This document shows, piece after piece, positions 6,466 to 58,028 of a stretch of 64,000 bases of DNA. Position numbers and translations under genes: made by a program. Within the stretch, counting starts at the first letter, position 1, and each line of letters opens with the position of its first letter. This stretch comes from Pseudarcicella hirudinis (GTDB lineage Bacteria; Bacteroidota; Bacteroidia; Cytophagales; Spirosomataceae), in the NCBI RefSeq assembly GCF_900115665.1, contig NZ_FOXH01000001.1, positions 179,777-243,776 on the forward strand. Direction: 5' to 3'. Below the pieces are notes generated by a model. That model had not been told where the DNA came from, did no database searches, and saw only the letters and a list, made by a program, of their open reading frames with translations.

Positions 6466-6486
6466 CTTTATTATAAAAATTTAAAG

Positions 6487-6524: not shown

Positions 6525-6703
6525 TAAATACCCCCTTTTTTATAAGGATTTTACCCCCTATGCTGTATAGATATAGTCCTAGTTTTGCTACAAAAAATTA
6601 CAATAATAATTCTCACGATTTTTCTCCATTTAAACAATTTCATTAAGAAATGAAAAAAACTTTATCTGACCGGCAGGTCTTACCCTGCAAAAAATCGGCA
6701 AAA

Positions 6704-40955: not shown

Positions 40956-43748
40956 TTGAAATTTATGAAATATCGGGTAAACGATTTTCTCTGTTATACA
41001 AAAGCATTTTATCTTGCACTGATCTGTTCGCTTATTGTGCCTTTATCAGAAACCCCTGGTCAGTCTGATAACAAATCTACCCTTATCCAAAATAACAAAA
41101 AAGAGCAGAAATTCTTTGAAACCTTAATCGATGAACTAGAGAAACTCTACAGCAGTAATGATCTTCCCGGAGCCAATACAAAAGGAAGAATTGTTTTAAA
41201 ACTGATTGAAAAATCCCCTTCTCCGCATTTTGTCTCTAAATTTAAAGTGTATTCATTCCTTGCGGCAAATTATGTAAAGCAGGATCGTGAAGATTCCGCA
41301 GTATTCTTTTTTCAGCGCGGCAACGAATTATCGGGTATTTCTCATGAGCTGACAGAGAAGATTCCCGACTATGTCTGCGCACATTGGGGTAATCAGGGAG
41401 TGTTCTACAGAGATAAAGCAAATTTTATCCAATCTGTTAATTGCATCAATAAAGCTATTCAGATTGTGGATCAGTATAGACTAAAGCGTTACAGGCCGAT
41501 TTTACTGAATAATCTTGCCAACAGTTATGATCTGATGGGTAATTCTGAGAAAGCCCTTACCCTGTATAAGCAGATTGAAAGACTCGGTTTACCCGAAGAT
41601 ATTCAACAGGTTTATATACTTTCATCTATGGGCTGGAACTCGTTAAGGCTTAAACAAAATACCAGCGCAGCATTTTACTTTAAGAAAAGCCTGAAATTCT
41701 ACAGAAAACTCCTCAGAAAGAAAGCCATTTCAGAGGACAGTGAATTGGAAACGAGACTTCTGTATCATATTGGTCTTTGTGAATCAAGAACTAAATCCTA
41801 TCAGCAAAGCAATCTTTTTTTAACCAATGGCATTAATGCGCAATTATCCAAAGGATTATTAAAAGGCCGATACCTTGCCTTATGTTATGACCGAAAAGCA
41901 AGAAATGCCGGAGAAAACGGACAAATTTCAGAGGCATTGTCTTTTATTCAGCAGGGTTTGATGGCTGTAGTCCTGAATTTTGACGATTTGAATCCTAAAA
42001 AAAATCCGGAGCTGTCGCAGATAAACCTCGGACAGCAGACATTATTTCAATTACTGGCATTTAAAGGAAAACTACTTTTTCAACTGTATGAAAAAACACA
42101 TAATGAAGAATTGCTTAAGTCTTCAGTCAAGACTTTTCAGCTGGCCGTTATGCTTGCAGATAATTACAGAAAAGAGATTGATTTTCAGGATGATAAAGTG
42201 TATTTTACACAGTCGAATACAACTGTTTTCCATGAAGCGATAGAAGTGACCTATCAATGGTATATCAAAAGTCCTTCGAGGGAAAAAGCTACTATTTTAT
42301 TTGAATTAATTGAAAGCAACAAAGCGGTTTCATTGAATGATTTTGTTGAACGTTATAAAACTGAAGAACCAAAGATACCAGGTGATCTGCTTTCCAATGA
42401 AAAGAAAGAGATGGCTATCAATTCAGGACTGAGGCAAATGATCCTGCAAAATGCCGGCAGGGAAAAACCCGATAGTCTGAAAAAGCTTTTGACAGACAGC
42501 GAATTGAGACTTTATCAGATAAAAGCGACTATTTCAAAACACCTTCCGTTTAATATTTACCGGAATACAGAAAAGACATTTTTATTGAAGGAACTAACGG
42601 CATTACTAAGTAAAGAAACAGCCTATCTGAGCTATACATTTACCGATTCCGGGAATTTACTCGTCATGGGATTAAGTAGTAAGTCGTTTATAATCAGGAA
42701 AATACCTGTTTCAAAAGAATTCTATGACGAAGTTTCCGGTTTAATTCCAAAATTACATACTAATCCTATTTTTCAGGGATACCTCGGGAATAAGGAGGGA
42801 ATCCGGCTGTATAATTACCTGATCAAACCCATAGAACATTTTCTGGCCGGAATTGAGCGTTTAATAATTTGCCGTGATGGTGCGCTTAATTACCTTCCTT
42901 TCGAGGTATTGGAAACAGGGAAGAAGAAAGACGATTACCTGGTTAATCATTATGCTGTTACCTATGTTTATTCCGGATTAAGTTATGTGCTGCGGCATGA
43001 AAATGAAACTACTTCGAAGAATCGATTGCTTACGATGGTACCATTTAACCACCAGCGGATTACAGCAGAGGGAGATACCTTAAAAGCACTGAGAACTTCC
43101 GAGCAGATTAAAAAAATGAGTCATCGCTGGATCAGCGATAAAATGGCTACCAAAGAAGCATTTATTCAAAATATTAAAGAAAATAACCTGCTGAATCTGG
43201 TGGTTCATTCAGACATGGATCCTTCGGATCCGGCAAATTCCTATGTATATTTTTATCCGGATTCGAAAAAAGAGAAATGGAAACTGGGCTTTTACGAATC
43301 TCTCTCTTTACCCTTACAGAACTGTAAATTACTGGAAATAAGCTCATGCAATAGTGCAAATGGTCAGTTTGAGGCAAATGAAGGGCTTATTTCATTAACC
43401 TATGCTTTTACAAGAGCAGGCTGTCGTTCGGTAGTTGGTGCACAGTGGAAGGCACATGACCGCTCAAGTGCCTACATCAGCGGGTTGTTTTTTGAATACC
43501 TGAATAAGGGTTTTCCGAAAGATATTGCCCTGCAAAAAGCAAAGGTAGATTTTATCCAATCTTCCGTTGGACTGGATCTGGATCATCCTTTTTACTGGGC
43601 GAATTTAATCCTTACTGGAAGTAATCAACCGATTGCTGATAAGGTCGGATTACCTGTCTGGCTGATTGTATTGATTACATTGGCGCTTATCAGTTCAGCC
43701 ATATTGCTAAGAGTCAGGTTTTTCACCGGAAAAGCTAAGAGTGAATGA
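40956..43748 (+). CDS. Membrane-anchored TPR-repeat plus CHAT-domain (caspase-like) protease
   Basis: N-terminal signal/TM. Central TPR-like helical repeats. C-terminal CHAT with His (LVVHSDMDPSDP) and Cys (LLEISSCNSANG) dyad motifs. Terminal TM helix PVWLIVLITLALISSAILL. Confidence 0.8.
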   Translation: MKFMKYRVNDFLCYTKAFYLALICSLIVPLSETPGQSDNKSTLIQNNKKEQKFFETLIDELEKLYSSNDLPGANTKGRIVLKLIEKSPSPHFVSKFKVYSFLAANYVKQDREDSAVFFFQRGNELSGISHELTEKIPDYVCAHWGNQGVFYRDKANFIQSVNCINKAIQIVDQYRLKRYRPILLNNLANSYDLMGNSEKALTLYKQIERLGLPEDIQQVYILSSMGWNSLRLKQNTSAAFYFKKSLKFYRKLLRKKAISEDSELETRLLYHIGLCESRTKSYQQSNLFLTNGINAQLSKGLLKGRYLALCYDRKARNAGENGQISEALSFIQQGLMAVVLNFDDLNPKKNPELSQINLGQQTLFQLLAFKGKLLFQLYEKTHNEELLKSSVKTFQLAVMLADNYRKEIDFQDDKVYFTQSNTTVFHEAIEVTYQWYIKSPSREKATILFELIESNKAVSLNDFVERYKTEEPKIPGDLLSNEKKEMAINSGLRQMILQNAGREKPDSLKKLLTDSELRLYQIKATISKHLPFNIYRNTEKTFLLKELTALLSKETAYLSYTFTDSGNLLVMGLSSKSFIIRKIPVSKEFYDEVSGLIPKLHTNPIFQGYLGNKEGIRLYNYLIKPIEHFLAGIERLIICRDGALNYLPFEVLETGKKKDDYLVNHYAVTYVYSGLSYVLRHENETTSKNRLLTMVPFNHQRITAEGDTLKALRTSEQIKKMSHRWISDKMATKEAFIQNIKENNLLNLVVHSDMDPSDPANSYVYFYPDSKKEKWKLGFYESLSLPLQNCKLLEISSCNSANGQFEANEGLISLTYAFTRAGCRSVVGAQWKAHDRSSAYISGLFFEYLNKGFPKDIALQKAKVDFIQSSVGLDLDHPFYWANLILTGSNQPIADKVGLPVWLIVLITLALISSAILLRVRFFTGKAKSE

Positions 43749-45028
43749 TTTGCTGCAACGCAGTAACTTTTGATTTCATGCCGGGAATATTTAATAAAAA
43801 GGAAAATATGAAGGAAAATTTACTCTTACAGCAGGTAATACAGGCATACCAGGGGACAGACTCAGTAGTCAGGAGAAAAGCTATTGATAAATTTAAGGCA
43901 GAATTTACGCATAAATTGACGAAATATGCAAAAGATCAATTCGGGAATGATGAAGTAAGTAGTGCAGTGAACAAAAGTTTTGAGGATTTTTTGCTCACCG
44001 TAATTGGGTGCAATTATATTCCAGATGAAGTGTTCAAATCATTGAAAGACTTTTTACTTATTGATTATTACGAAGAAAAACTGTACAACGATTTTAAGGT
44101 TTTTCTTTCGCATAAAGACAGAACTCTGTTGAGTACGGAAAGAAAACTCAGAAAGGTTAATCAGGCTTTGCTGAATTTTTTATCTGAAAAACATTTGCGA
44201 AATGAATTGTCAGAAACTCCTGAGGAAGAGCCTTTTGCATTAGCCAAACTCAGCCATGACTGGATTAATGAGTTTACTTTCAATATATACCTGTATAAAA
44301 TTCTTTCGGGAGAAAGAAATCTTAAACATAACAGGACCCGGAAGCTAAAGAATATTGTGACGGATTCCTTCGCAGTTTTTATGCTTCGTTTTTCTCAGAA
44401 TAAAAATTCGAGAACCAGAATTGAGGGAGAAATAGGGTTTAATGTTCGCCTCCAGCTTGGCAGATTTGAGAAGGAAATGAAGACGATTGATACATTTCCC
44501 GATATTTTTTCCAGATCGCTGGAAATCCTGCTCAATAAGTTAAAAGAAAGTGATACAGTTCTCAAAACAACAATAATTCAGTTCTGGCTGGGTATTTTAA
44601 GGAATCAGCTGAAAGAAGGCAAAAAAGAAATTAACCCGAATAAAAGTAAGGTAAATATTGATGATGAAATAGATTACTCCGGTCGTCAGAATCTGAGAGA
44701 AGAAATATTTGCATTTATTCAGGAAGGGCTGGAGGCTATAAAGGATGTTCATGGTGGAAAGGCCATGAAGTTACTTTTGACAGGAAGACCAGGCAGGTTT
44801 ACCATAATTGTTATGGCTGCCACATTTGATAATATTCCGGATTGGCTAAAAAAAAGCCCCGACCCTGATTATGGAAATAAAGCTTCTGAAGCGCAGCAAA
44901 GGCAGGACTGTAAGAAAGCTCTGGTTCAATGGATGAATCTTCAGGTAGATGATCCTGAGAGCAACTGGTATGGGAACAGAGGACGGAATTTGATTGATTT
45001 CATTTGTAAAAAACCCGGAAAGAAATGA
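43745..45028 (+). CDS. Divergent ECF-sigma-like protein with ~180-aa C-terminal extension (translationally coupled to the CHAT gene)
   Basis: ATGA overlap with the upstream stop (alternative start at 43808 after aaaaaggaaaat). A region-2-like segment (...KSFEDFLLTV...) and a region-4-like HTH (FAVFMLRFSQNKNSRTRIEGEIGFNVRLQLGR, compared with canonical VFVLRY.EGLSYEEIAEILGISVGTVKSRL). Resemblance judged by eye only. Confidence 0.4.
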   Translation: MICCNAVTFDFMPGIFNKKENMKENLLLQQVIQAYQGTDSVVRRKAIDKFKAEFTHKLTKYAKDQFGNDEVSSAVNKSFEDFLLTVIGCNYIPDEVFKSLKDFLLIDYYEEKLYNDFKVFLSHKDRTLLSTERKLRKVNQALLNFLSEKHLRNELSETPEEEPFALAKLSHDWINEFTFNIYLYKILSGERNLKHNRTRKLKNIVTDSFAVFMLRFSQNKNSRTRIEGEIGFNVRLQLGRFEKEMKTIDTFPDIFSRSLEILLNKLKESDTVLKTTIIQFWLGILRNQLKEGKKEINPNKSKVNIDDEIDYSGRQNLREEIFAFIQEGLEAIKDVHGGKAMKLLLTGRPGRFTIIVMAATFDNIPDWLKKSPDPDYGNKASEAQQRQDCKKALVQWMNLQVDDPESNWYGNRGRNLIDFICKKPGKK

Positions 45029-45759
45029 GTAAAACGAATAATGACGGAAATTTTGAGGAAATAGAAAAGTTTCTTCATGGACAACTTAGTCCTGAAGCAG
45101 AATTACTTTTTTATCAGAGACTTAAAACCGATGAAGCATTTTTAAGAGATTTTCAACTGTGGACCAATCTGGAAGACTGGCTGGAAGAGGTTACAGAAAA
45201 TGAAATAAAAGCTGCTGTTAATATTCAGCCGATGGGGAGCGCCCGTCATGAAGGTGAAAATAAGGGAATTGTTTTGAAAATGCTGACGAATAAAAAACAA
45301 CCGGTATTAGTTATGCTGGTATTGATGGTTTGTTTTGGAGGTTTAATGTATTGGTATGTAAGGTTTTATGAAAGTGGTTCTGAGCTGGTTACCGGACAAA
45401 TGAGTTATATTGAAGGTAACACTAATACCGGGAAAGGAGCATTTGAGGGAGATGGATCCGTTGAGGCGAAAGTACCATTAAACTGGCGGGCTGAAAAGTA
45501 TGAGGGAAAAGATATCATGTATCAGTTTTTTTACCCGGACTCTCTATCCAGTCCTACAGAAATCATTTTCAGAGTTCCTGACCTGACTAAAGATTTTGCG
45601 AAAGGAGCGATATTATTTTATAGCTGGTCACATAAAAAGTTTATCCTGAAAATGGATAACCAAGTCTTTTTTATCAATAAAACCCATGATTGGGAAAAGT
45701 TAGTCCCTCATAAAAATGAAGAAAATTTACGGCCTGATAGCAATAATTCTGATAACTAA
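45025..45759 (+). CDS. Anti-sigma-factor-like single-pass membrane protein
   Basis: ATGA overlap with the upstream gene. The N-terminal FEEIEKFLHGQLSPEAELLFYQRLKTDEAFLRDF parallels the N-terminus of the anti-sigma at 60140 (LDAIERFCRGEMNTPEKEEFDRLLTNDPLLAKE). Central TM VLVMLVLMVCFGGLMYWYV. Confidence 0.45.
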   Translation: MSKTNNDGNFEEIEKFLHGQLSPEAELLFYQRLKTDEAFLRDFQLWTNLEDWLEEVTENEIKAAVNIQPMGSARHEGENKGIVLKMLTNKKQPVLVMLVLMVCFGGLMYWYVRFYESGSELVTGQMSYIEGNTNTGKGAFEGDGSVEAKVPLNWRAEKYEGKDIMYQFFYPDSLSSPTEIIFRVPDLTKDFAKGAILFYSWSHKKFILKMDNQVFFINKTHDWEKLVPHKNEENLRPDSNNSDN

Positions 45760-47428
45760 CTTTTCGGCATTTTGTCAGAACACAAAATGTGAATGTGAGG
45801 ATGTACTGAATAACAGAAATCCGGATAAGAGCTTTTTTCCCCTGAAAGATGCTACGAAGGAAAAAATAGATAAATGGGTAAACAAGATATTTTTACCTAT
45901 TTATAACGAAGCCCTCAGAGCCAGAGGGTTGCCTCAGTTTATCAGACTGGAAGTGAATGTTTTTAGCGTGAACTGTGTATCCGGCTATGGAGCTCTGGCA
46001 AAAAAATGCGAAAAGGAAAAGATTAACGGGAACCCTTTAATGATCCTTTATGATGAACAGTTTATCAATAAAATAGATCTGAAAAATGAGCTGAATACTT
46101 TGTTTGTATTGGCTCATGAATTAGGTCATATCGTTTCTGATCACTATCACAGCACGCTTCCCTATGATGAGTCTTACGATAATTATCTGAAAAAATTGAA
46201 CAAAAGTTATTACAGAGAAGAGCAGGATAACCGTGACAAGAAAAAAATGACTATCAGTGAAAAACACCTTGAGGAACTGACAGCTGATGGTTTTGCTATT
46301 TGGTTTCTCCGGAAGTTTTACGAAAAAAATCAGAGTAATAAAGCCATTGCCAGACAATTTGATCCGAAGAATTTATTACAGATTTTCCCGTCCATTGAAG
46401 AGCTTGAACCTGCAAAGTGTAAGGAGTCAGATTCTCATCCGGGTTGTAAAAGAAGACAATATTTCATCAGTAAGTTAATGGCTTCCGGGAATTGGGAGCA
46501 GGTAATGAATTTTAAAAAGAACATAAGAAGTTTTGCTTCAGAGTATATCGATTCAACCTATACCATTTTGTCTAAAAAAGAGATTGAACAAATGGGGCAG
46601 ATTGCTAAAAGAGCAAGAGAGAAAATTACCGGAGATTCTCTGAAGAGGATAGGAGAGCATTTTCTGAATAAGGAACAATACCTGAAAGCTGATTCATATT
46701 TTAAGCAATCAATTGCCATTTATTCTAATCTGGTTTATCCGGAAGACTCAGCAGATGTGGCACAAAAACTGGAAGAACTTAAGCAGATTTTATCAGTCAG
46801 ATCCTTTTCAAGATTGTCATTGCTGGGAGGATTGGATTTTATTAAGCCTCATCTGGTTTCAGGAAATGAGTCAGTTAACGCCACAAATGCCGGAATCGGG
46901 TTTGCAGGGCTACGACTGGGGAGATATAGTTATACCCGAAAACTTGGTTATGAGATAGATTTTAAATATGCTCTTCAGACACTTCAGTTTGATACTTATA
47001 AAGATGAGGCATCTGCTATTGAACGGTTTAACAGTTCCTCAATCTATATTCAACCCAGAATTGCCTTTAAACTGATTTCTGACGTCAGAGATAATAATAC
47101 CAGAGGTCTGATTCTTTCTGTAGGCCCCTCGCTGATGTATCCTTTAAATTTTAAATATCAGAATTTCTCCGTAGGAGGGGGGAATACACTTGGTGTTACG
47201 ATGAAACCGTCGGCAGGAATTAATTTTGGCCTGGGTTATGAGTATTTGCACAGAAAACTGACAGGAAGTACCTGGAATCATTGGAGGGTATCTTTAAATG
47301 GAGGATACCAGCCACTTAAATTTGAAAGTGAGCAGCTTGTAAATCAAAATTACTCAGCGGGTTTCTGGTTGCTGGGGCTTGACTTTACACTTGGAATTTT
47401 ACCTAAGTTTTTAATAAAAAAAGAATGA
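45716..47428 (+). CDS. Secreted HExxH zinc metallopeptidase-like protein with C-terminal beta-rich (possibly barrel) domain
   Basis: Signal MKKIYGLIAIILITNFSAFCQ. FVLAHELGHIVSDHY carries an intact HExxH. The C-terminal half has alternating-hydrophobic strands. The 5' end overlaps the upstream gene by 44 nt. Confidence 0.5.
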   Translation: MKKIYGLIAIILITNFSAFCQNTKCECEDVLNNRNPDKSFFPLKDATKEKIDKWVNKIFLPIYNEALRARGLPQFIRLEVNVFSVNCVSGYGALAKKCEKEKINGNPLMILYDEQFINKIDLKNELNTLFVLAHELGHIVSDHYHSTLPYDESYDNYLKKLNKSYYREEQDNRDKKKMTISEKHLEELTADGFAIWFLRKFYEKNQSNKAIARQFDPKNLLQIFPSIEELEPAKCKESDSHPGCKRRQYFISKLMASGNWEQVMNFKKNIRSFASEYIDSTYTILSKKEIEQMGQIAKRAREKITGDSLKRIGEHFLNKEQYLKADSYFKQSIAIYSNLVYPEDSADVAQKLEELKQILSVRSFSRLSLLGGLDFIKPHLVSGNESVNATNAGIGFAGLRLGRYSYTRKLGYEIDFKYALQTLQFDTYKDEASAIERFNSSSIYIQPRIAFKLISDVRDNNTRGLILSVGPSLMYPLNFKYQNFSVGGGNTLGVTMKPSAGINFGLGYEYLHRKLTGSTWNHWRVSLNGGYQPLKFESEQLVNQNYSAGFWLLGLDFTLGILPKFLIKKE

Positions 47429-48381
47429 AGTATTTGATAGCCAGTATTGTTGCGATAATTTCTTTGTTTTTGGTATTCGCCTGCGTAGAAGAGTTAAAAA
47501 CCGGAGATAGTTTCTCTTATTATAGTATTGTGAAAGATGAAGAAATTCAAAGTTCACTGAAATCCTGCTTTATTAAGTTCGGAATTACTAATTATTCCGG
47601 GAATTTTACCTTAAAAGAACAGGACGAAGCTATAGCAGAAGCCTTTGAAAGCTGGCAGCCTGAAATTACAAAGTTGTATTTTGCACAGGCCGGAATTAAC
47701 GAAAAAAAAGATTTTGCCATTGAGTTTTCCGCTGAAAACCTGTTTTCCGGTAAACAGAAAAATGCCGGATTGTTAAAGTTTAAAACCGGAGATGTTTTAA
47801 GCATTATCCGTCTTTCAGACACCCAGCCTTTTGTGAAATTCGTACTTAATGAAAACTATCACTGGGACAAGGCTACCTTCAAGGGGGTTATCCTGTTTCT
47901 CACCGGAAAAGTCCTAGGCTTACAGGTATCTGAAGTTCCTGGGTCAATACTGAATGAGGACGTTTCAAAGTTAAATACTAAAAATGCTCCCGGTAGTGAA
48001 GACCTGGAAACTGTTAAGAATCTGCTTCAGAATAAATGTAAGGAGGAAATTTTCTTCAATATTGTTACTTCTGCCTCAGATTCCGGGATAGACCTGAATC
48101 ATGTTCTTAGCATGCGAAATAACCCGGAAGGGCTTGTTTTTGAAAACGGATTTCTTCTTTCAACTGATTTTCAGTTTCCAACCCTTGATAAATATGCAAG
48201 AATTAAAGTATTAGACAGAAATGTGATAAAAACTAACCCTTATGGCTCTCCGATCGGTTTGAACAGACAATTCCCGCTAGACTCACTGAAATCCGGTACC
48301 AGCTATTATCTGAGAGGTTATTTTAAGGATAACACCGGGCGAGTTGTGTACAGCAAACAACTGAAGTTTAAAACAAACTAA
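47425..48381 (+). CDS. Matrixin-like lipoprotein paralogue with fully degenerate zinc site
   Basis: Lipobox ...LVFAC. CFIKFG...AEAFESWQPEITKLYF and YHWDKATFKGVILFLTGKVLGLQVSEVPGSILNED align with 39621..40643 (CLIRYA...DAFSVWQKANKNVLF; YPWTKESLSRAIAYHAGLFLGMGTS...SIMNPY). All three His are lost. ATGA overlap with the upstream gene. Confidence 0.45.
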   Translation: MKYLIASIVAIISLFLVFACVEELKTGDSFSYYSIVKDEEIQSSLKSCFIKFGITNYSGNFTLKEQDEAIAEAFESWQPEITKLYFAQAGINEKKDFAIEFSAENLFSGKQKNAGLLKFKTGDVLSIIRLSDTQPFVKFVLNENYHWDKATFKGVILFLTGKVLGLQVSEVPGSILNEDVSKLNTKNAPGSEDLETVKNLLQNKCKEEIFFNIVTSASDSGIDLNHVLSMRNNPEGLVFENGFLLSTDFQFPTLDKYARIKVLDRNVIKTNPYGSPIGLNRQFPLDSLKSGTSYYLRGYFKDNTGRVVYSKQLKFKTN

Positions 48382-48460
48382 AAAAATATTAATCTTTATG
48401 TAACCAATAAAATTGTAGTGGTACTATCAGGGTGTTTTAATTCTATTTTTAACAACTGAT

Positions 48461-49468
48461 ATGATGAGACAATTAATTTACCGGTCTGCCTTTATCATCA
48501 CAATATTGGCTATACTGCAAAGTTGTGAGCGTATTATTGAAGTACCGATCGCAGGAGAAGCTTCCGGGGCTATTATCAGAGTTGGCACTCCTTCCAGATC
48601 CGGACAAACAGCTACTTTCACGATAGATGTGCATGTAGTAGATGGCGCCGGAAATTATGCGAGTGGATTAGGAGCGCAAAATTTCACGATGATGGAAGAT
48701 ACAACCGGAAGAAAATATTCGCTTTCTTTTAGGTTACTTGATATCAAAGGGGGCAACAGAACTCCCGTAAAAGGTGATTACAATGCATTCCTCTTACTGG
48801 ATCAAAGCGGAAGTACGGATGATACAGATCCGGACAATCTGAGAATCAGGTCAAGCCAGATTTTTCTTGAATCTATGGGAAATAATGATAAAGTAGCATT
48901 AGGAAGTTTTACTACAGGTCAGCTTTATCCTTCATTGAGTGGAAATGTGCATTTACACGGAGGGTTTAATGCTAAAGGAACAACTTTTTATCCGGCATTA
49001 GATTCACTTAAGAATACAATTCTTAAAGGAAATACGCCTTTATTTACATCAACAGCCTGGGCAATTAATTACACTGCTGCAAATGCTAAAGCCCAAAATA
49101 AAGTTGTTATTTTGTTTACAGACGGACAGAATAACGGAGGCTCCAGTCAGTCTGCCGTAGAATCATTATCTCTTCAAAAAAAAGTGCCGGTCTATACGGT
49201 AGGTCTGAGCACAGATGTTGGCTTTGATGTACTTAATAACATGGCTCTCAATACCGGAGGTAGTTTCATGTGGGCGAAAGATGCTAAACAGCTTATCAGT
49301 TATTTCGGAACACTGGGAAATTTATTAAGAGGGAATGCAGAATACTATACCCTGACGTTCGAAGCAAGTGCCGGCAGTTTACCGACTTTCAGTAAATTAT
49401 TGTACTTACAGGTAAGCCTTCCGAATGGTAAGAAATTCTGGATGCCATATGTCATCAAACTGGCATAA
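48461..49468 (+). CDS. von Willebrand factor type-A (vWA) domain lipoprotein
   Basis: Lipobox ...ILQSC. MIDAS motif LLLDQSGST. Downstream ...TAWAI... and VILFTDGQNNGG. Confidence 0.8.
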   Translation: MMRQLIYRSAFIITILAILQSCERIIEVPIAGEASGAIIRVGTPSRSGQTATFTIDVHVVDGAGNYASGLGAQNFTMMEDTTGRKYSLSFRLLDIKGGNRTPVKGDYNAFLLLDQSGSTDDTDPDNLRIRSSQIFLESMGNNDKVALGSFTTGQLYPSLSGNVHLHGGFNAKGTTFYPALDSLKNTILKGNTPLFTSTAWAINYTAANAKAQNKVVILFTDGQNNGGSSQSAVESLSLQKKVPVYTVGLSTDVGFDVLNNMALNTGGSFMWAKDAKQLISYFGTLGNLLRGNAEYYTLTFEASAGSLPTFSKLLYLQVSLPNGKKFWMPYVIKLA

Positions 49469-49605
49469 TCTTCCGGTAAATAGTGAAACAGTCAGAACAT
49501 AATTTCCTGTCCGGAGCATTTCCGGATAAAGAGGACACCTTTGCCCTTACCAGGATAAATACTTTGAAAAAGCCATAAATCTTAAATCAATTGATCTGAA
49601 ATCCG

Positions 49606-50748
49606 ATGAAAAAAATAACAAAACAGAACTTATTGAAATTTATATTGATGAACCTATATATAGTTCCGTCAGTTTGGGGGCAGGACGTTATTTACCTGAA
49701 AGATCATACCAGTCTGGCATGTAAAATTCAGGAAGTTAGTCCCGAGAAAATCAAATATAAAAGGCCGGATAATCCGGAAGGACCGAATTATTCGGTAAAA
49801 ACGGAGACAACATTGCTGATTATTTCTGAAAAAGGCTCTTATCTGACGAGTGCTGAATTGACTGACGGTGCCGTTGATCCGACAAGTATTACTGAACATT
49901 TTAATATAACACTAAATGCTCCTTCACCTCAGTATGATCAGATTATTACTAATTCTGACATGCTGAAAGTTACAATAGATCAGGATATTGATCCGTTAAT
50001 CTATATTTCACAATCCGGAGAAAGTAAGAGTATTGTTTTGTCGGAAGTGCTGGCTGTTTTATACAAAGATGGTCATCATAAACTCATCGCTGATCCCGAG
50101 AAAGTGGCAGAAATTCTGACGAAGCTGAAAAGCCATGAAACAGGTATGAAAAACCCTGCAATCAGCCAGGCTGATAAAGAAAACAGCGAAAAAACGGTGT
50201 TGGCTCCGATACAGAATAACATGTCTGATATTGACATGGGGGAACTGGGGATGGTTAAATTCGAAGATTACAGTGAGAAAGCAATGGCAAAGGTCAGGGA
50301 ATTTACCAACGTAATTACCATACTGGCCAACAAGGAAACAGATTTTAATGAATCTAATAAAATCATTGAGAAGACCATAGAGCTTTTCCTCGACGATAAA
50401 GCCAGGGTTGAAGTAAGTAGTATCAGTCGTCCTGAAAAAAAGAAATACCTGATCCGTGAATACCTCAAACGAATCAAGCTTTTAAAGTATGATAATGTTG
50501 AGGTGTCATATTCTAATATTCAATATGTAGGCAAGCTCAGAAAAGCAGCCAATGGCTTGTATTACGGCATTGTTTCTTTTGAACAGGCCTTTACAGGTTA
50601 TCGTGACGGAAGGATAGTTTATCAGGACAAAACTGTTAAAAATCATACCGTTGTGGTTAAAGTTTCTGAAGAGATGATTAGTGGTACCACGAGTTTATGG
50701 TGGGACGTCTTCCTATACGATGTTGGGGTAGTGGAAACAAAAGGATAA
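49606..50748 (+). CDS. Secreted hypothetical protein with N-terminal ~55-aa module shared with 56590..57912
   Basis: Signal peptide. DVIYLKDHTSLACKIQEVSPEKIKYKR parallels DRIYRTDKTIIEGKIEEISETEILYK and DRIIRKDGGIVEGKIVNASPGKIEYK in the later gene. Confidence 0.4.
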   Translation: MKKITKQNLLKFILMNLYIVPSVWGQDVIYLKDHTSLACKIQEVSPEKIKYKRPDNPEGPNYSVKTETTLLIISEKGSYLTSAELTDGAVDPTSITEHFNITLNAPSPQYDQIITNSDMLKVTIDQDIDPLIYISQSGESKSIVLSEVLAVLYKDGHHKLIADPEKVAEILTKLKSHETGMKNPAISQADKENSEKTVLAPIQNNMSDIDMGELGMVKFEDYSEKAMAKVREFTNVITILANKETDFNESNKIIEKTIELFLDDKARVEVSSISRPEKKKYLIREYLKRIKLLKYDNVEVSYSNIQYVGKLRKAANGLYYGIVSFEQAFTGYRDGRIVYQDKTVKNHTVVVKVSEEMISGTTSLWWDVFLYDVGVVETKG

Positions 50749-50773
50749 TATTCACGCAAAACGACCTGAGATT

Positions 50774-51667
50774 ATGTTTATATTCTTCAAAGAATTCAAA
50801 AGAGAATACCCGGAATTTATGCCGGGGCCGTCAGTGAAAAACTTTTGGTTATTCACACTGAAAAAAGAAGCCAATATTCAGAGTGCAACAATGCCTGGAT
50901 TATTTCAGTCAGTGAATTATTCACTGCTGCTTGCCGGATTTGCCTTAATCATTATTTTGGAAGGAGCAGCTACTAAAATCGCTTCGGTGTATGGCGTAAG
51001 TCTGATGGCGATTCTGGCAGCAATAGTTGTTGATATTATTCTGGCGGTCATTTCTCATATTTATCATGGCAAAATCTGCCTTCTGAAAAACAAACTGTTT
51101 ATAGAGGAAACGAAGCAGAAAAGAGATCAGATTAACAGGAGTATCAGCAACCTGAAATGGTGGTCATGGTTCTGGTATACAATCATACTTTTTTCAGGGT
51201 TATTTAAATTCTACTGGTTTTATATTGTTTATAAAATCTATCTTATTCCCTTTGGTTTAAATTATGATGCCTATTCGATATTGGTCTTCTTCTGTTATTT
51301 TGTAGCTTCCTGGTTGCATATATTTTGTACTGGTTATGTGTTCTACACCTCTTATTTTCATTACAGAATTCATAAAGAAGAACGAAAGTATATTTATTTG
51401 CCGGAAGACAAACTGTTGGATGATAATTCTTTAAGGGATAAGAAAAATCCAAGACCGATTACTGCCAATGTTGAGCTGATTCCTGTTAAAGAAGGTTCAC
51501 ATTCCTTGTATAAAGATGAAAAAGACGGTAAATATTACCTTGAAACGCTTGGGATTTTCCTTGATGAGGAATTGAGAAGAATGATCGATCGTCAGCACAA
51601 CGCCGACCAAAGACGGACATTGGCTCAGGAAGGTGTAAGGATTCAGCTGGATATTCTCAACAAATAG
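50774..51667 (+). CDS. Polytopic integral membrane protein (hypothetical)
   Basis: Four to five hydrophobic helices (e.g. LLLAGFALIIILEG, LMAILAAIVVDIILAVISHIY, WWSWFWYTIILFSGLF, ILVFFCYFVASWLHIFCTGYVFY). Confidence 0.4.
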   Translation: MFIFFKEFKREYPEFMPGPSVKNFWLFTLKKEANIQSATMPGLFQSVNYSLLLAGFALIIILEGAATKIASVYGVSLMAILAAIVVDIILAVISHIYHGKICLLKNKLFIEETKQKRDQINRSISNLKWWSWFWYTIILFSGLFKFYWFYIVYKIYLIPFGLNYDAYSILVFFCYFVASWLHIFCTGYVFYTSYFHYRIHKEERKYIYLPEDKLLDDNSLRDKKNPRPITANVELIPVKEGSHSLYKDEKDGKYYLETLGIFLDEELRRMIDRQHNADQRRTLAQEGVRIQLDILNK

Positions 51668-51671
51668 ATCT

Positions 51672-52796
51672 ATGAAAATACAATGTGCTCTCATCTTATT
51701 GATTTCTTTGTTCATGGAGAATTGTATCGGAAATTCTTCCGGAGAAGGAAATGCCGCTTCCCTGAAAATAGTTCCCTTTACTCCGGAACTCAGAACGCAA
51801 CAGGAACAGATGTTAAATGCTTTTGATAAGAAGATGCTGAATACTTATCCGGTTACAATTTTAGTAAATGCACCATTATCAAAAGACTCGACCGCACATC
51901 TGCCGGATGTGTTTAAAGTATTATTAGAATATAAGGGAAATGGAGGCTGTATGGATACTGAAATTTTACCGGTAGGGACCTTGCGTAAAATCGGGAATAA
52001 TCAGGAATATAATCTTTTTCCTGCATTGATAATACCGCCATCGTTTGACAAAAGTAAGATTACGTTACTGCTCAAACCTCAGATTGACGGATTTTGGAGG
52101 AGTGCTGTGCTTAGGAAACTCTTTGTACAGCCTCCCGTTAATCCGGATAACTATCTCAAAGAATTGCCTGAAAGTTCTGCTGAAATTTTTGTGCTGGAAA
52201 GCAAGACTGATGCCCGCATTTCAATAGAGTTGCCCGGACAGAAAAAGTACCAGGTTTTTAAGGATCCGGAAGAATTGAGAAAAAAAATGGATGAACTGGC
52301 ATGTGCTTCTTCCGGGAAATTTAAGGCCCTTGTGCTTTTTGGCCTGAATCCCGAGAAAACTCAAAAAACAACAGCTACAGCCATACCAGGAAATTCTCAG
52401 AAAAAAGTACCCGATCCGGTTAGGCAGCCCATAGAACTCAAAGGAAAGAAAAAGCCGGAGAATCAGGCAGAGGTAATTAATACCACTATTATAGGCGGAG
52501 AGGGTAATCCTGAAGTGAAAGAAAGACTTCGCCTGTTAAAAAATAACCTGAAAATAATGGTTTCCGGGGGGGACATTCTCATAACAAACCGTGCTTATGA
52601 AGCGGCTTTAGCCATGTTTGAAAGTGAAACGTTTGTAGATGTTTTCAGCCTCGATAAAAGCGGAAGCAAGCGATTCAGGATCAAAAATTTCCTGATCCGG
52701 AATAAACTGATGCGACAACCCATTGCCATTGAGCAAATCAGGGTTTCAGGAAAAACTTCCGGACAGACTTTTGACCAGATGAGGGTGATTGAATAA
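51672..52796 (+). CDS. Hypothetical lipoprotein
   Basis: Lipobox ...LFMENC. No motif recognised. Confidence 0.4.
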   Translation: MKIQCALILLISLFMENCIGNSSGEGNAASLKIVPFTPELRTQQEQMLNAFDKKMLNTYPVTILVNAPLSKDSTAHLPDVFKVLLEYKGNGGCMDTEILPVGTLRKIGNNQEYNLFPALIIPPSFDKSKITLLLKPQIDGFWRSAVLRKLFVQPPVNPDNYLKELPESSAEIFVLESKTDARISIELPGQKKYQVFKDPEELRKKMDELACASSGKFKALVLFGLNPEKTQKTTATAIPGNSQKKVPDPVRQPIELKGKKKPENQAEVINTTIIGGEGNPEVKERLRLLKNNLKIMVSGGDILITNRAYEAALAMFESETFVDVFSLDKSGSKRFRIKNFLIRNKLMRQPIAIEQIRVSGKTSGQTFDQMRVIE

Positions 52797-52802
52797 ATCC
52801 TG

Positions 52803-53687
52803 ATGAGAATGAAAATCTTTATTTTGATATTTTGGGCGTTTACAGTCAGTTACGGTCATGCACAAGCCCGGATAGAGCGTCAAAGGATTGAAGATAAGTC
52901 TGTTATTTACGATCGGCAGGCAGAAGAAAGGTTTGCTTTCCAGGTGAAAACCATTGATGAATTTATGGAAAGATTTAATGATTCTGAGTCCACGCTTCTT
53001 CGGAAATACCTGGATGTAAGCAGACCAGGCGTTATTAAATCTGACCGGATCAGAATGCTGAAGGCTTTGTTTGAAAAGAAAAGTTTTGTCAAAGATTCTT
53101 TAAAAACGGCTTTTGCAGCATCTGTTTGTGATAGTTTAAATCCTCAGTTTCTTAACTTTTTTCAGAAAAACTGGTATGCTCAGGCGCAATGTTTATTTCA
53201 GGATGGGGCTCGTAATAAGTACATTACCTTAGTTCTGAAGGTTTTGAGAACTGCAAACGGTGGAAGCAAATGGGTCATAGCCGGTGCAAGTGAATACGGT
53301 ATAGCAAAACAAAATAAAAGTACTGTCCGAATGACAGGAGGAGATACCCGGAAGGGACTTAATCCTTATAGCCATGTGATGGATTTTACAGAACTGGAAG
53401 ATGCACTTGAGGATAAAATAAATATCGAAAGTTACCTGGATGAAGGCTTTCTGACACTTAAAAATCAACCGATTATCGAAGCGATCCTTTCCGGGAAAAT
53501 AAGATTTAATTATGTGCAGGAAATTACCTACCATTTTCTCCAGATTGAGGGCTGGATCTTTTCCGTTCAGAATTTTAAAAGAATGACAAGGCAATCGGGC
53601 TGGCTGATCACTCAGCTGCAGCCTGCCGATAAAGAGGAGAAGGATTTTTATAAACAGGCCGTATTAGCGCTGAAAGTAACACAATGA
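52803..53687 (+). CDS. Hypothetical secreted protein
   Basis: Signal MRMKIFILIFWAFTVSYGHAQ. Confidence 0.4.
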   Translation: MRMKIFILIFWAFTVSYGHAQARIERQRIEDKSVIYDRQAEERFAFQVKTIDEFMERFNDSESTLLRKYLDVSRPGVIKSDRIRMLKALFEKKSFVKDSLKTAFAASVCDSLNPQFLNFFQKNWYAQAQCLFQDGARNKYITLVLKVLRTANGGSKWVIAGASEYGIAKQNKSTVRMTGGDTRKGLNPYSHVMDFTELEDALEDKINIESYLDEGFLTLKNQPIIEAILSGKIRFNYVQEITYHFLQIEGWIFSVQNFKRMTRQSGWLITQLQPADKEEKDFYKQAVLALKVTQ

Positions 53688-56581
53688 AAGTATCTGTAAT
53701 AATTGGAAGCCTTATTTTAATTTCTTCCTTATCCCTGAAAGCGCAGCAGGATAAGGAGAATATACCTGTATATGTAAAAGACGGCTCTCAGATTATTTTT
53801 CAGGCAAATCAACTTTTAGAAGAATACAGAGACCTTCTGAATGTCTTGTCTTACAAAGAAATTGATGGAAAATCTACAGAAGACCTGATAACCCACAGCT
53901 ATAACGGACCCATTAATAAGCTTTTTTATAATAAGAACATAACCGTTGAAGATGATCTGGAAGCAACTCTTCTAAACGGTCGGGCCGTTAAGAAATCAAT
54001 CGATAGATACCTTCGGGATTTTGATTTGTTTTATGAGAAAACAGAAGAAAGCTCTGTCGTTTTCAGGAACCTCAGAATGTCGAATGTTAAAAGAACGGCT
54101 GAATACATTTATGTTAAAATTGATTTTGATTGTGAATTTGGAAGCAGGCACCGTCAGACTAAATCCGGTTATACCTCTCATCAGAGAACTATGGAGTTTC
54201 GGGCTGATAAAGCAGGTAAGAAGTGGCTGGTTTATATAGTTCGTATAGGTAACTACGTTTTGCCGCAAAATGAACAGGAAGAACGGCTGAATGATGTAAA
54301 GTTATGGCCCGATATTCAAACGAAAACAACCGGAGAATCTGTCGGAGCGGAATTGTCTCAGCCGGAAATACAGGAACTTCTCGATAAGGAAATAAAAAGG
54401 CTGACGGATGAATTTAAAATAGATCAGGAAGCCAAAGAAAAGATTGTCAAAGAAATTTTGAATAAGGCCGATATTGCGTTTGGACAGGAAGATCTTGAAG
54501 AAGCCCGCAAATTATATGAACAGGTAAAAACTTTTTGGCCCAATATTGAATCAAGACATATTGCAAGACAACTGAGAAGAATTGCTCAATTGGAGGAAGA
54601 ATTAAGGACAAAACCCGAAAGGATGAGCCTTGAATTTGCCCTGAAGGGTAGAAATGCCGAAAGACTTCACCGGTACGCGGAGGCTAAGAACTGGTATGCA
54701 AAGGCTTATGAACAAAAACCGGATCAGGATTCTTTACTTAGAAAAATAGAAAATTTAAATCTCAGAATCAGGGTTTTATCATTCATTGAAGCAAAAATTA
54801 TTGAGGGAAATGCTGATAAAGCGGTGGAGGAATGCGAAAGAGAAATTGATAAATTAAGAAATGGGAAAAAGAAAATTGACGATTCAAAATTGCCGCTTTT
54901 CTCTGACTTTCTGACCTGGAAAGCAAGAGCACTTGCCAAACAAAATAAGTCTGGACAGGCGGAAAAAAACTTTAAGGAAGCTGTTGCTACCGATCCGAAT
55001 AATGCGGAGGCTTTTCGCTATCGGGCATTGCTGAATTACCAGCGGAAACTTTATACGGAATCAATTGCAGACCTGAAGGTTTATCTGACATTTGATGAGA
55101 ATAATACCATTGCATTAATTGATCTGGCCAGATCATATTTTGGCATCAGAGACAGTACAAAAGGAGTTGAATTCCTGAATAAAGTATTAACGATTGAGCC
55201 TCAAAATGCTGTAATAGCTTATGAAAAAGCCCTCATGCTTCATTATTGGGGGAAAGCTAAAGAGGCGGCAGAAGCATTCACCAGGGTATTAAATCTGAAT
55301 TATAACATGGCAAATGTGCTTTTTTACCGGGGACTTAACTATGAAAAGCTGAAATTATATAACTATGCCATAAATGACTTTCAGCAGTTACAGCGAGTCG
55401 GGGCCAGTGCCGACCAGAATACTGCCATTTTAAGCCTTGCTAACAATTATTTCAAAGAGGGGAAAAGTTATTATGATTTGAAGCAATATGAAATAGCGAT
55501 CAACCAATTCAGGATAGCTACCATGTTTTGGGTAAATCATTATGAAGCATGGTTTTGGCAAGGGCTTGCTTTTAAAGAGTCAGATCGGTTTTCAGAAGCC
55601 CGTAAAGCGCTTTCCAAAGCTATTGAAGCAGATCCTTCACAGGCCTGGGCTTACTATTATCGTGGCTTGTCAGCTTTTTCAGATGATGAGCAGGAGGAAA
55701 GCATTTCTGATTTTGAAAAAGCTTTTGAATTATCTTCATCCATTTATCAGGCTCCTGTTAATCAGGGAGATGCACATACTGAACTGATGCAGTATTCACT
55801 TGCAATTGAAGCATATTCAAAGGCTCTGGCAGGAGAGTGGATAAGAAAATCCGAGAATTATAACGGATTATCACTGGTTTACGGGAAGAGGGCAAATGCC
55901 TATTTTAAGCAAAAAAATTACCTGAAAGCTCTTGCTGATTTTGAAGAATGCCTGCGATTCAACCGAAGGTACTCTGATGGATATTTCCTGAGAGGTCTGA
56001 CCTATCTGGAAAAAGATGATTATTCAAAAGCCAATGATGATTTTAACAAGGCGATTGAACTGGGTTTTGATCCGGGACAAGGTCATTTTTACAACGGAGA
56101 GGCTTACAGAAAGAGGAAGAAATTTGAAATAGCGGTAAATGAATATTCCGCAGCCCTTAAAAGAGAAGAATGGATTCAGAAACGGGCTGAAGCTTTTCAC
56201 CAAAGAGCTTTTTGCTACAGTAAGGTTAATCAATATTCATTGGCATTAGCGGATTTCCAATCATATGAAAAGATCGTTTCAGGTAATCTCACCGATGCTT
56301 CGAAAAAAGAGTTTGGGTTTATTTATCTCCTCAACGGTAAAACTGCTGAGGCTAAACAGGAATTTGAAGCAGTACTTAAACTACAGTCTGCCGATCCGGA
56401 GGCTTTATTCGGACTAGGCGTTTATCACTTTTTTGAAGGAAATATGCCCGAATCAGACAAATATTTTGAAAGAGCTGCAAATATGAATAAGCTGACTATC
56501 AGGGAAATGCGTCTGGGCATCTCAGGACAATTATTTGAAAACAGTAAACTGAAGAAAAGAGTAGAGAAAATAATTAAATAA
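53684..56581 (+). CDS. Large secreted tetratricopeptide-repeat (TPR) protein
   Basis: Signal peptide. More than 15 recognisable TPR units (W-LG-Y-A-F-A-P pattern, e.g. AEAFRYRALLNYQRKLYTESIADLKVYL, AWAYYYRGLSAFSDDEQEESISDFEKAF). ATGA overlap with the upstream gene. Confidence 0.75.
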   Translation: MKVSVIIGSLILISSLSLKAQQDKENIPVYVKDGSQIIFQANQLLEEYRDLLNVLSYKEIDGKSTEDLITHSYNGPINKLFYNKNITVEDDLEATLLNGRAVKKSIDRYLRDFDLFYEKTEESSVVFRNLRMSNVKRTAEYIYVKIDFDCEFGSRHRQTKSGYTSHQRTMEFRADKAGKKWLVYIVRIGNYVLPQNEQEERLNDVKLWPDIQTKTTGESVGAELSQPEIQELLDKEIKRLTDEFKIDQEAKEKIVKEILNKADIAFGQEDLEEARKLYEQVKTFWPNIESRHIARQLRRIAQLEEELRTKPERMSLEFALKGRNAERLHRYAEAKNWYAKAYEQKPDQDSLLRKIENLNLRIRVLSFIEAKIIEGNADKAVEECEREIDKLRNGKKKIDDSKLPLFSDFLTWKARALAKQNKSGQAEKNFKEAVATDPNNAEAFRYRALLNYQRKLYTESIADLKVYLTFDENNTIALIDLARSYFGIRDSTKGVEFLNKVLTIEPQNAVIAYEKALMLHYWGKAKEAAEAFTRVLNLNYNMANVLFYRGLNYEKLKLYNYAINDFQQLQRVGASADQNTAILSLANNYFKEGKSYYDLKQYEIAINQFRIATMFWVNHYEAWFWQGLAFKESDRFSEARKALSKAIEADPSQAWAYYYRGLSAFSDDEQEESISDFEKAFELSSSIYQAPVNQGDAHTELMQYSLAIEAYSKALAGEWIRKSENYNGLSLVYGKRANAYFKQKNYLKALADFEECLRFNRRYSDGYFLRGLTYLEKDDYSKANDDFNKAIELGFDPGQGHFYNGEAYRKRKKFEIAVNEYSAALKREEWIQKRAEAFHQRAFCYSKVNQYSLALADFQSYEKIVSGNLTDASKKEFGFIYLLNGKTAEAKQEFEAVLKLQSADPEALFGLGVYHFFEGNMPESDKYFERAANMNKLTIREMRLGISGQLFENSKLKKRVEKIIK

Positions 56582-56589
56582 CTAAAAAT

Positions 56590-57912: not shown

Positions 57913-58028
57913 AACTACACTTGAAATGAGGCTGTATTCGTGTGCTGGTTCTACCCTATTATTTTAAATCAAATAGCCTGTAAAAGGCGCAGCAATTTTT
58001 ACCTGAAAATTAACAGTTGTTTTAATTT

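Follow-up and report, generated by a model that had tools for sequence, protein, structure and literature searches.

A link of periplasmic CHAT proteases to sigma/anti-sigma signalling has so far been described in a fused form, and mainly for DdvA of Myxococcus (Myxococcota), for which there is precedent of a periplasmic TPR-CHAT protein acting on an anti-sigma factor (PMC11506125). CHAT-based control of a sigma factor is also seen in Craspase, a complex of Cas7-11 and the TPR-CHAT protein Csx29 which cleaves Csx30, a protein that holds the ECF sigma factor RpoE (PMC10028731). Proteolysis may also act on a sigma factor itself, as in BldN (ECF121), an ECF sigma whose long N-terminal extension is removed in this manner (PMC7826278).

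The window, by which we mean the whole 64,000-nucleotide stretch of Pseudarcicella hirudinis DNA analysed here, provides a Bacteroidota example in which a predicted periplasmic, caspase-like CHAT protease appears to be connected to sigma/anti-sigma signalling while being a protein in its own right; all features described below lie on its + strand. The protease gene (40956..43748) encodes a 930-aa protein with matches to Pfam PF12770 (CHAT; E=4e-41; residues 616-889) and TPR_12. Its order of segments, namely an N-terminal signal-like hydrophobic segment, TPRs, the CHAT domain, a C-terminal TM helix and a basic tail, leads us to predict that the bulk of the protein is periplasmic. Both catalytic residues, His (..VVHSD..) and Cys (..SSCNS..), are kept in 5/5 orthologues, and so is the C-terminal TM helix with its basic tail in a hydropathy scan; the N-terminal hydrophobic segment rises above the hydropathy threshold in just two of the five (the window and L001), so that the periplasmic location stands as a prediction. 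An alternative start of this gene at ATG 40965 is possible.

The resemblance to DdvA-DdvS extends to a predicted periplasmic TPR-CHAT protein with a His-Cys dyad, its genomic association with an ECF sigma plus single-pass anti-sigma protein, and a plausible role of CHAT as the site-1 protease with which regulated intramembrane proteolysis begins. Unlike DdvA, the TPR-CHAT protein here is a stand-alone product anchored by its C-terminal TM helix, CHAT and the two anti-sigma-like proteins discussed below (Y and 60140) are encoded by separate genes, and the locus specifies two paralogous anti-sigma-like and two sigma-like proteins. What it would share with Craspase is the control of a sigma factor by a CHAT-family protease through cleavage of its inhibitor, whereas Craspase is cytoplasmic, RNA-guided and CRISPR-linked, none of which applies to this locus. 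The initial annotation of the window, which presented a protease-coupled sigma circuit as something unlike known systems, overlooked both DdvA-DdvS (PMC11506125) and Craspase-Csx30-RpoE (PMC10028731).

Downstream of the protease gene are the two open reading frames already recognized in that annotation, 43745-45028 (427 aa) and 45025-45759 (244 aa), referred to here as X and Y, which had been proposed to form with the CHAT gene a series of three genes overlapping by ATGA. The overlap between X and Y is real: in the window, ATG 45025 and the stop codon of X form ATGA, and in L008 the two genes share 4 bases. That between CHAT and X depends on ATG 43745, which does overlap the CHAT stop codon but is unsupported by homologues. 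It is probably not a real translational coupling because all X homologues start at the position of M22 (43808), the NCBI start of X is M12 (43778), residues 1-21 of the 427-aa ORF have no counterpart in homologues (and are modelled with very low pLDDT), and a terminator-like hairpin identified by a consensus scan (43750..43766) sits directly after the CHAT stop, where the 427-aa ORF has its first codons. The hairpin is a weak one, 9 such sites occurring in the region against 3.9 expected. The likeliest form of gene X starts at M22 (43808..45028) and encodes a cytoplasmic, all-alpha, sigma-like protein of 406 aa with 19 predicted helices and no TM helix.

X is a very divergent relative of sigma factors and not the canonical sigma for which it had been taken. 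Scans of X, Y and their relatives against Pfam, NCBIfam and PADLOC returned nothing significant. No significant match to Sigma70_r2 or Sigma70_r4 was found by Pfam in ORF 43745..45028, nor to sigma-70 regions 2 or 4 in 10 family members, in the family consensus or in profile-vs-PDB searches; the ECF sigma at 59571, included as a control, was detected. PF04542 (Sigma70_r2) matched neither X at E<=1 nor the consensus, the only hint in the family being P0010 (E=0.18; 12 bits, the cut-off being 24), which maps to X residues 197-277. Sigma-4 profiles (PF04545/PF08281) gave no Pfam match at E<=10 with any member or the consensus, even when the long loop was excised. Profile-vs-PDB searches with A1, A2, A3 and A6 yielded only a chance-level match to a DisA linker (E=0.09-0.25), BLASTP found no match between X and sigma(59571), and global Foldseek searches of PDB and BFVD returned none at E<=0.001. 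A first AF2 model, built from 4 sequences, had a pLDDT of 52 and was discarded.

It is profile-profile comparison and structure prediction that point to a sigma relationship. Residues 1-100 of X (43808..44107), which display an ECF-type N-terminus and a region 2.1-2.2 pattern, scored 25.6-25.8 (P=5-7e-4) in hhalign against sigma-2 of the sigma(59571) family and of SigW/AlgU/BldN, above all 50-60 decoys, and are modelled with a pLDDT of 85-95. A second and more canonical region (residues 197-277; 44396..44638), whose D-IF-S...F...YW-GI motif corresponds to regions 2.2-2.4, scored 24.2-24.4 against sigma-2 profiles (P=1.1-1.3e-3), again above all decoys. These hhalign signals are weak, with probabilities of 18-32%. 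As modelled, X adopts the helical bundle typical of sigma-2 (regions 2.1-2.4), so that the N-terminal region-2-like stretch noted initially, though weak in sequence (P=5e-4, above all decoys), finds strong support in the predicted fold of the whole protein. Going by its sequence, X probably holds two sigma-2-type modules, at residues ~1-100 and ~197-277. A recent internal duplication as the origin of the two regions was considered and found to be unsupported (hhalign P=0.15).

The segment first described as sigma region 4 (VFMLRF...LQLGR; 44375..44464, residues 211-240 of the 427-aa ORF) forms the entry into the second of these modules: the middle region of X that contains it scored 12-15 against sigma-4 profiles, inside the decoy range, and its part from QNKNS on (in the 406-aa form, from residue ~197) is matched to the beginning of sigma region 2 instead. 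Nor did any other region of X leave the decoy range when set against sigma-4 profiles. The ~180 additional residues at the C-terminus, viewed earlier as an appendage, in fact include the second sigma-2-like region as well as the most conserved domain of the family (residues 294-400; 44687..45007; EEVFxFIxDGLDAI..GKAR.LLLTGR...SEAQQRQDCKKALI.WM...SNWYG.RG). All 13 invariant columns of alignment A3 lie between X residues 303 and 398, and the C-terminal helix, SEAQQRQDCKKAL, is strongly conserved and basic. The domain occupies the position that sigma-4 has in an ECF sigma, with sigma-4 similarity undetectable at the sequence level; given that X lacks any sigma-4 signal, promoter -35 recognition, and even sigma function, can only be considered putative.

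Canonical ECF (group 4) sigma factors, such as SigW and AlgU, are compact proteins of ~170-220 aa made of sigma-2, a linker and sigma-4, whereas X, at 406 aa where SigW or AlgU would have ~180-200, matches neither Sigma70_r2 nor Sigma70_r4 and appears to combine two sigma-2-like modules with a C-terminal domain that is not sigma-4. BldN is canonical in both its region 2 and its region 4 profiles; in X, the N-terminal part is itself sigma-2-like. T4 gp55 and B. subtilis SigO-RsoA are sigma-2-only or split sigma factors, but gp55 and SigO are much smaller than X and act with partners (gp33/gp45 or RsoA), no counterpart of which was identified here.

These results bear on the model put forward at the outset, namely an ECF sigma with an N-terminal region 2, region 4 at ~211-240 and a regulatory extension of ~180 residues, coupled to CHAT and controlled by it through Y. 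In its favour, the sequence does contain ATGA overlaps, the sigma-2-like signal at the N-terminus is genuine, and C-terminal extensions are known from a class of ECF sigmas (PMC7826278). The failure of the Sigma70_r2/r4 profiles, the chance-level score of the alleged region 4, the concentration of the family's best-conserved residues in the alleged extension, and the M22 start of the homologues together with the hairpin behind the CHAT stop nevertheless largely refute this model already, and we hold it to be very improbable. The weakness of all sequence-level sigma signals, the want of a significant sequence-profile match to any sigma family and the tiny size of the X family (~10 clusters among 1.84 billion representatives) would also suit a non-transcriptional role, in which X would be a helical cytoplasmic adaptor or scaffold whose likeness to sigma-2 arose by convergence or is an artefact of modelling, and X-Y would help to assemble, export or quality-control the exported proteins of the downstream genes. 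This we regard as rather improbable.

Gene Y (45025..45759) encodes a single-pass membrane protein of 244 aa. Its cytoplasmic helical domain (residues 1-62; 45025..45210) is homologous to the N-domain of anti-sigma 60140, with which it was combined in joint alignment A6; against the anti-sigma(60140) family, hhalign gave a Prob of 82% and P=1e-5 over 52 columns, a score reached by 0/200 decoys. The likeness of the two N-termini that had been proposed is therefore significant at the profile-profile level, though missed by BLASTP, which found no match between Y and the anti-sigma protein (60107/60140), and the comparison identifies the N-domain of Y as a paralogue of that of the neighbouring ECF sigma's partner. 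The single TM helix expected of Y was located at residues 94-112 (45304..45360) by hydropathy scan, and 7/7 orthologues have exactly one; the Lys-rich stretch ahead of it places the N-terminus inside. The extracytoplasmic C-terminal domain (45361..45714) carries conserved VP..W, YQF and FRVP motifs (alignment A2) and has no Pfam or PDB match. A homologue search with Y alone recovered only a near-identical copy.

One TM helix, an extracytoplasmic C-terminal domain and adjacency to X with an ATGA overlap are features that Y has in common with anti-sigma factors of class I. Unlike RsiW and MucA, Y has an N-domain that corresponds to no catalogued anti-sigma domain: neither Pfam nor PDB offered a known anti-sigma domain matching the joint Y/anti-sigma N-domain profile, anti-sigma 60140 is itself devoid of a Pfam anti-sigma match, and alignment A6 displays no conserved His/Cys, indicating that the zinc-binding HxxxCxxC motif of the ZAS subfamily is absent. 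Judged from its sequence, Y looks like an anti-sigma factor, and may bind and inhibit X.

A Y homologue is found directly downstream of the X homologue in 10/10 distinct loci, and the pair, kept as a unit, is genomically linked to the TPR-CHAT protease. In the window, CHAT shares a single 20-kb cluster with a genuine ECF-type sigma (59571..60143; Sigma70_r4 E=3.7e-6; full-length family profile matching SigW at 1e-5 and AlgU at 5e-4) and with the cognate anti-sigma-type protein (60140..60832), a single-pass protein consisting of the N-domain paralogous to that of Y, a TM helix and periplasmic TPRs. Orthologues of this sigma directly adjoin X-Y in the Arcicella loci and L010. X-Y adjoins the orthologues of both sigma and anti-sigma, along with CHAT, in L001 and L003-L006, where CHAT is convergent and the order is sigma, anti-sigma, CHAT; the neighbour in L010 is a sigma(59571)-like gene. 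The cognate ECF sigma thus lies beside the CHAT gene in L001 and L003-L006, as it does in DdvA/DdvS. In L008, the 10 kb upstream of X showed no CHAT gene. Direct coupling of X to CHAT, as initially envisaged, is at odds with the fact that most related loci, those of Arcicella included, have CHAT convergent and beside a different, canonical ECF sigma/anti-sigma pair. X has a LytTR-only gene ahead of it in Arcicella-type loci; as the window lacks it, this gene is not a core component.

The co-oriented genes downstream of X-Y (45716..58997), defined from Pfam matches and gene order, are its putative cargo. The operon headed by X-Y is the same in the window, in L007 and in L008/9, and the order of the genes after the pair is shared by L007, L008 and L009 (42-66% identity). 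Both L007 and L008/L009 have syntenic genes for an HExxH protein, a VWA protein, g49606, g52803 and a 965-aa TPR protein; g56590 and the PD40/TolB-like protein have counterparts also in L008, and the Matrixin-like protein (47425) and ORFs 50774 and 51672 have none in L007 or L008/L009. Apart from a weak capP-like zincin (E=0.0015), the cluster proteins matched nothing in PADLOC, and the operon contains no CBASS/CRISPR or other PADLOC defence genes; unlike in DdvA/DdvS, the regulon here would not be an anti-phage defence island. X-Y probably switches on this neighbouring operon, although the canonical ECF pair nearby could by itself explain its regulation.

The linkage of X-Y to sigma(59571)-type genes in three distinct gene arrangements, and the paralogy of the Y and 60140 N-domains, which makes cross-binding plausible, are suggestive of another role, in which X would be a sigma mimic competing as a decoy with ECF sigma 59571 for anti-sigma domains that are paralogous (those of Y and/or 60140). 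X-Y would then tune the canonical ECF pair, by analogy with PhyR displacing EcfG from NepR. A sigma-4 signature is missing from X, whose sigma-2 motifs are degenerate, the principle of sigma mimicry is established, and PhyR-NepR-EcfG similarly places a sigma-like protein, perhaps not sigma-active, near a real ECF sigma/anti-sigma pair (PMC8999054). PhyR, however, has a receiver domain and NepR is soluble, whereas Y is membrane-bound and X and its relatives match neither Response_reg nor any other Pfam family and thus lack a receiver or other obvious input domain. Known mimics of the PhyR type moreover retain both sigma-2-like and sigma-4-like halves, X-Y stands at the operon head, a position typical of an autoregulated sigma/anti-sigma pair, and the conserved basic C-terminal helix of X would seem to resemble a functional binding surface more than a decoy. 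We consider such a decoy role unlikely.

The explanation that we favour, with a confidence slightly above even, is that X-Y is a regulatory pair, lineage-restricted and fast-evolving, that follows the sigma/anti-sigma plan, in which X is a sigma-2-type regulator held by Y, freed by CHAT and activating the downstream operon. Y would keep X at the membrane until a periplasmic event strips or remodels its outer domain, the top candidate trigger being the membrane-anchored TPR-CHAT protein, which may cleave Y as a site-1 protease, as proposed for DdvA. Freed X might then dock on RNA polymerase through its sigma-2 module and turn on the operon of exported proteins (HExxH, VWA, TPR, PD40), working jointly with the canonical ECF sigma and anti-sigma (59571-60832) or upstream of them. 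A bolder variant would make X the founder of a new sigma-derived class (tandem sigma-2-like modules plus a new, conserved C-terminal domain in sigma-4's position) controlled by Y, within a two-tier 'split DdvA' circuit that includes the ECF pair and in which one stand-alone periplasmic TPR-CHAT protease cleaves two paralogous anti-sigmas; freed X would then start a second transcription programme or serve as a sigma decoy. We view this variant as a doubtful one.

On the reading that we favour, the locus illustrates how sigma-like regulators that have diverged too far for annotation by Pfam can yet be traced through structure prediction and synteny. Should X bind RNA polymerase without sigma-4, or act as a decoy, the repertoire of sigma-factor architectures would be wider. 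The family is very small and ranges over Arcicella/Pseudarcicella, and its general biological impact is therefore limited; the host, P. hirudinis, is a freshwater bacterium. The sequence GAAATAACC was abandoned as a tag for ECF promoters, being too short to trace and having 5 exact copies in the window, mostly within genes; it forms a conserved block ~195 nt upstream of the sigma(59571) orthologues.

The open reading frames singled out in the initial annotation are all present on the forward strand of this Pseudarcicella hirudinis (Cytophagales) sequence: a TPR-CHAT protease gene (40956-43748; 930 aa, with TPRs and a CHAT domain, PF12770, E=4e-41) is followed by the gene of a sigma-like protein, hereafter X (43745-45028; 427 aa), and by that of an anti-sigma-like single-pass membrane protein, hereafter Y (45025-45759; 244 aa). 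The 427-aa product is 100% identical to a P. hirudinis "hypothetical protein" annotated by NCBI as 416 aa, with M12 (43778) as its start. Both ATGA overlaps on which translational coupling had been proposed exist in the sequence, the ATG at 45025 with the stop codon of X and that at 43745 with the stop codon of the CHAT gene, but the latter ATG is probably not the genuine start of X. All X homologues start at the position of M22 (43808), and residues 1-21 of the 427-aa ORF lack a counterpart in these homologues and are modeled with very low confidence. The CHAT stop codon directly precedes a terminator-like hairpin (43750-43766, forward strand) with a T-rich tract behind it, which suggests that the CHAT gene and X-Y are separate transcription units. 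Residues of X are numbered below from 43808 (406 aa).

X had been expected to match canonical sigma region 2 and 4 profiles, failing which it was not to be considered a sigma factor. Formally, this lack of a match is what was found, since neither ORF 43745-45028 nor its relatives significantly matched a sigma-70 profile while the control, the canonical ECF sigma encoded at 59571-60143, was detected (Sigma70_r4, 3.7e-6). X had no sigma match in Pfam or NCBIfam at E<=1; scanning of ten out of ten X family members at E<=10 yielded a single Sigma70_r2 match (E=0.18; residues 215-270 of member P0010), a hint that falls inside the second (middle) sigma-2-like region of X. Nothing was found when the family consensus was compared with sigma profiles, and X family profiles retrieved no sigma factor from all PDB sequences; the family profile of the control sigma matched SigW (1e-5) and AlgU (5e-4), both over their full length. 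Relatives of X are few: three distant ones turned up among 5.8 billion proteins in a word-indexed search, and about ten among 1.84 billion representatives in an exhaustive search with an HMMER profile, with no sigma factors among the matches of the latter. The genome scan recovered the family from Arcicella species only.

Sub-alignments of the X family were compared by hhalign with sigma-2 and sigma-4 alignments of the control sigma family, later widened with segments of SigW, AlgU, BldN and FliA, every comparison being calibrated by column-shuffled decoys. Residues 136-285 matched sigma-2 with a score of 24.2-24.4 (P 1.1-1.3e-3) and residues 1-135 with a score of 25.6-25.8 (P 5-7e-4), neither being reached by any of 50-60 decoys; the latter match starts in register at residue 1 and lends weak sequence support to the N-terminal region-2-like stretch proposed earlier. 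In the middle region, 'TFPDIFSRSLEILLNKLKESDTVLKTT--IIQFWLGILRNQLK' was aligned by hhalign to 'YEEAKDIFQEVIITFLHQVWEKKFKAMSEKEMEGYFKGIAHHKWL' of the sigma family, corresponding to regions 2.2-2.4. The two sigma-2-like regions have no detectable mutual similarity (P=0.15). X possesses a sigma-2 fold. Against sigma-4, all three regions of X scored within the decoy range (8-15; P 0.05-0.7). The segment originally likened to region 4 (residues 190-219; 44375-44464) sits in the middle region, is devoid of sigma-4 signal and, from residue ~197 on, aligns to where sigma region 2 begins. Conservation within the family is highest over the C-terminal ~110 residues, all 13 invariant columns (13/13) lying between residues 303 and 398. 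This C-terminal domain, preceded by a low-confidence linker (pLDDT <50 at residues 278-285), occupies the place of sigma-4 in an ECF sigma; its similarity to sigma-4 is not measurable, and a loop of ~15 residues breaks the would-be helix-turn-helix. No TM helix is present in X.

Of the defining features of the ECF family that were tested, X fails three: it does not match the region 2 profile, shows no region 4 and departs from the compact two-domain architecture. It is therefore not to be filed as an ECF sigma; its likeness to the family is the sigma-2 fold. ECF sigmas with an N-terminal extension have been described as uncommon, the extension usually being short, and BldN is the one case that is described well (PMC7826278). 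X probably descends from a sigma factor and, given its sigma-2 fold, is predicted to work like one. The main rival to this reading is that X is a PhyR-like sigma mimic (PMC8999054), which is favored by the lack of sigma-4 and disfavored by the absence of any input domain from X.

Y had no match in Pfam or the PDB, a negative that weighs little because the recognized anti-sigma partner of the ECF sigma (60107/60140) lacks an anti-sigma-domain match as well. BLASTP revealed no N-terminal similarity between Y and this partner (60140-60832). Profile-profile comparison of seven Y orthologues with five orthologues of the 60140 protein, using the N-terminal 70 columns only, recovered the resemblance noted in the initial annotation (probability 82%, P=1e-5, 52 columns in register), with a score of 30.5 that none of 200 decoys reached (median 9.5, maximum 15.9). 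The N-domain of Y is homologous to that of the ECF partner; their common pattern, h..hE.[FY]h.G.h...E...F...L..D..h..[DE]h..[WY]..L, is devoid of conserved His/Cys, and the joint profile matched no catalogued anti-sigma domain. The single TM helix of Y likewise stands (residues 94-112, just after a Lys-rich stretch) and is kept in all orthologues.

In each of the ten distinct loci recovered, Y lies directly downstream of X; three gene arrangements occur. In the first (the window and the relatives' loci L007 and L008/9), X and Y are followed by genes for a HExxH protein and a VWA protein, g49606, g52803 and a 965-aa TPR protein, with g56590 and a PD40/TolB-like protein in addition in L008; these downstream cargo genes are 42-66% identical, X and Y just 26-30%. 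Between the window and L008, the identities are 26-28% for X and Y and 42-66% for the other operon genes, the regulatory pair evolving much faster than its putative cargo. The second arrangement, that of Arcicella (L001, L003-L006), consists of a LytTR-only gene, X, Y and the orthologues of the 59571 sigma and its anti-sigma, with the TPR-CHAT gene convergent; tblastn found no LytTR gene anywhere in the window. In the third (L010), X and Y precede a 59571-like sigma gene on the opposite strand. The genuine ECF pair of the window lies 14 kb downstream, and the arrangements across loci therefore place it in one conserved neighborhood with X-Y and CHAT. This constant association with a genuine ECF pair also favors sigma mimicry by X, against which stands the position of X-Y at the head of an operon. 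In L008, the 10 kb preceding X contain an integrase/primase element in place of CHAT. This integrative element of a metagenomic relative (2082-8891 in both L008 and L009; tyrosine integrase, HTH_17 proteins and D5_N/DUF5906 primase-helicase genes) adjoins mnmE, immediately upstream of the X-Y operon. Upstream of X in the Arcicella-type loci L001 and L003 (1550-9941) is a run of exported proteins including a caspase (Peptidase_C14) and a papain-like Peptidase_C1 fused to DUF4384, together with a protein distantly homologous to that of window gene 52803-53687 and a LytTR-only, DNA-binding protein of 120 aa; a FGE-sulfatase gene lies beyond CHAT in L001.

The catalytic His and Cys are kept in all CHAT orthologues, as is a C-terminal TM helix with a basic tail, and an N-terminal signal-like segment exceeds the hydropathy threshold in two of five. 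On account of the kept helix and tail and the signal-like segment, CHAT is predicted to be periplasmic and membrane-anchored and to share its compartment with the outer domains of both Y and the 60140 protein. PADLOC defense models gave no match to the cluster. The sigma-2 fold of X, the N-domain homology of Y, the membrane topologies and the synteny are shown. On the best-supported reading, X-Y is a divergent sigma-like/anti-sigma-like pair that heads an operon of exported proteins and whose genomic coupling is to both a canonical ECF pair and a predicted-periplasmic TPR-CHAT protease. Y would sequester X, X would bind RNA polymerase, and the downstream operon would be the regulon; by analogy with DdvA, whose periplasmic TPR-CHAT portion has been proposed to cut its own linker prior to cleavage by RseP (PMC11506125), CHAT may act as the site-1 protease. 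The initial annotation, whose observations are confirmed in part and whose interpretation is supported in part, regarded such a protease-coupled circuit as unlike the SusC-linked anti-sigma systems of Bacteroidota. The logic of the circuit is not unprecedented, since sigma control is already tied to CHAT in DdvA-DdvS (PMC11506125) and Craspase-Csx30-RpoE (PMC10028731); what differs here is that CHAT is a protein of its own, that the anti-sigma-like proteins are paralogues and that the sigma-like one is atypical.

Other genes of the window include that of a 570-aa exported protein (45716-47428, forward strand), which bears the zincin motif HELGH and is beta-rich in its C-terminal region. Its M48 and capP-like matches are sub-threshold only, and it is conserved right after Y in L007 and L008/L009 (42-45% identity). 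Two Matrixin-like (PF00413) predicted lipoproteins (39621-40643 and 47425-48381, forward strand) are probably inactive protease-fold proteins, judging from the apparent absence of the HExxHxxGxxH zinc motif from both (HAGLFLGMGTS and LTGKVLGLQVS at this position). Divergent from the ECF sigma gene is a 65-aa lipoprotein-like ORF (59116-59313, reverse strand; MKRHSLILLLLAVIGAAAC...) with a conserved counterpart that, in Arcicella loci, lies downstream of Y and before the sigma gene; the intergenic region common to this ORF and the sigma gene contains, ~195 nt before the start of the latter, the conserved block (C/T)TGAAATAACC. Finally, the alignment of the family of this sigma (59571-60143, forward strand) displays two invariant region 4 cysteines, C144 and C180, a pair unusual among ECF sigmas that could confer redox or metal control.
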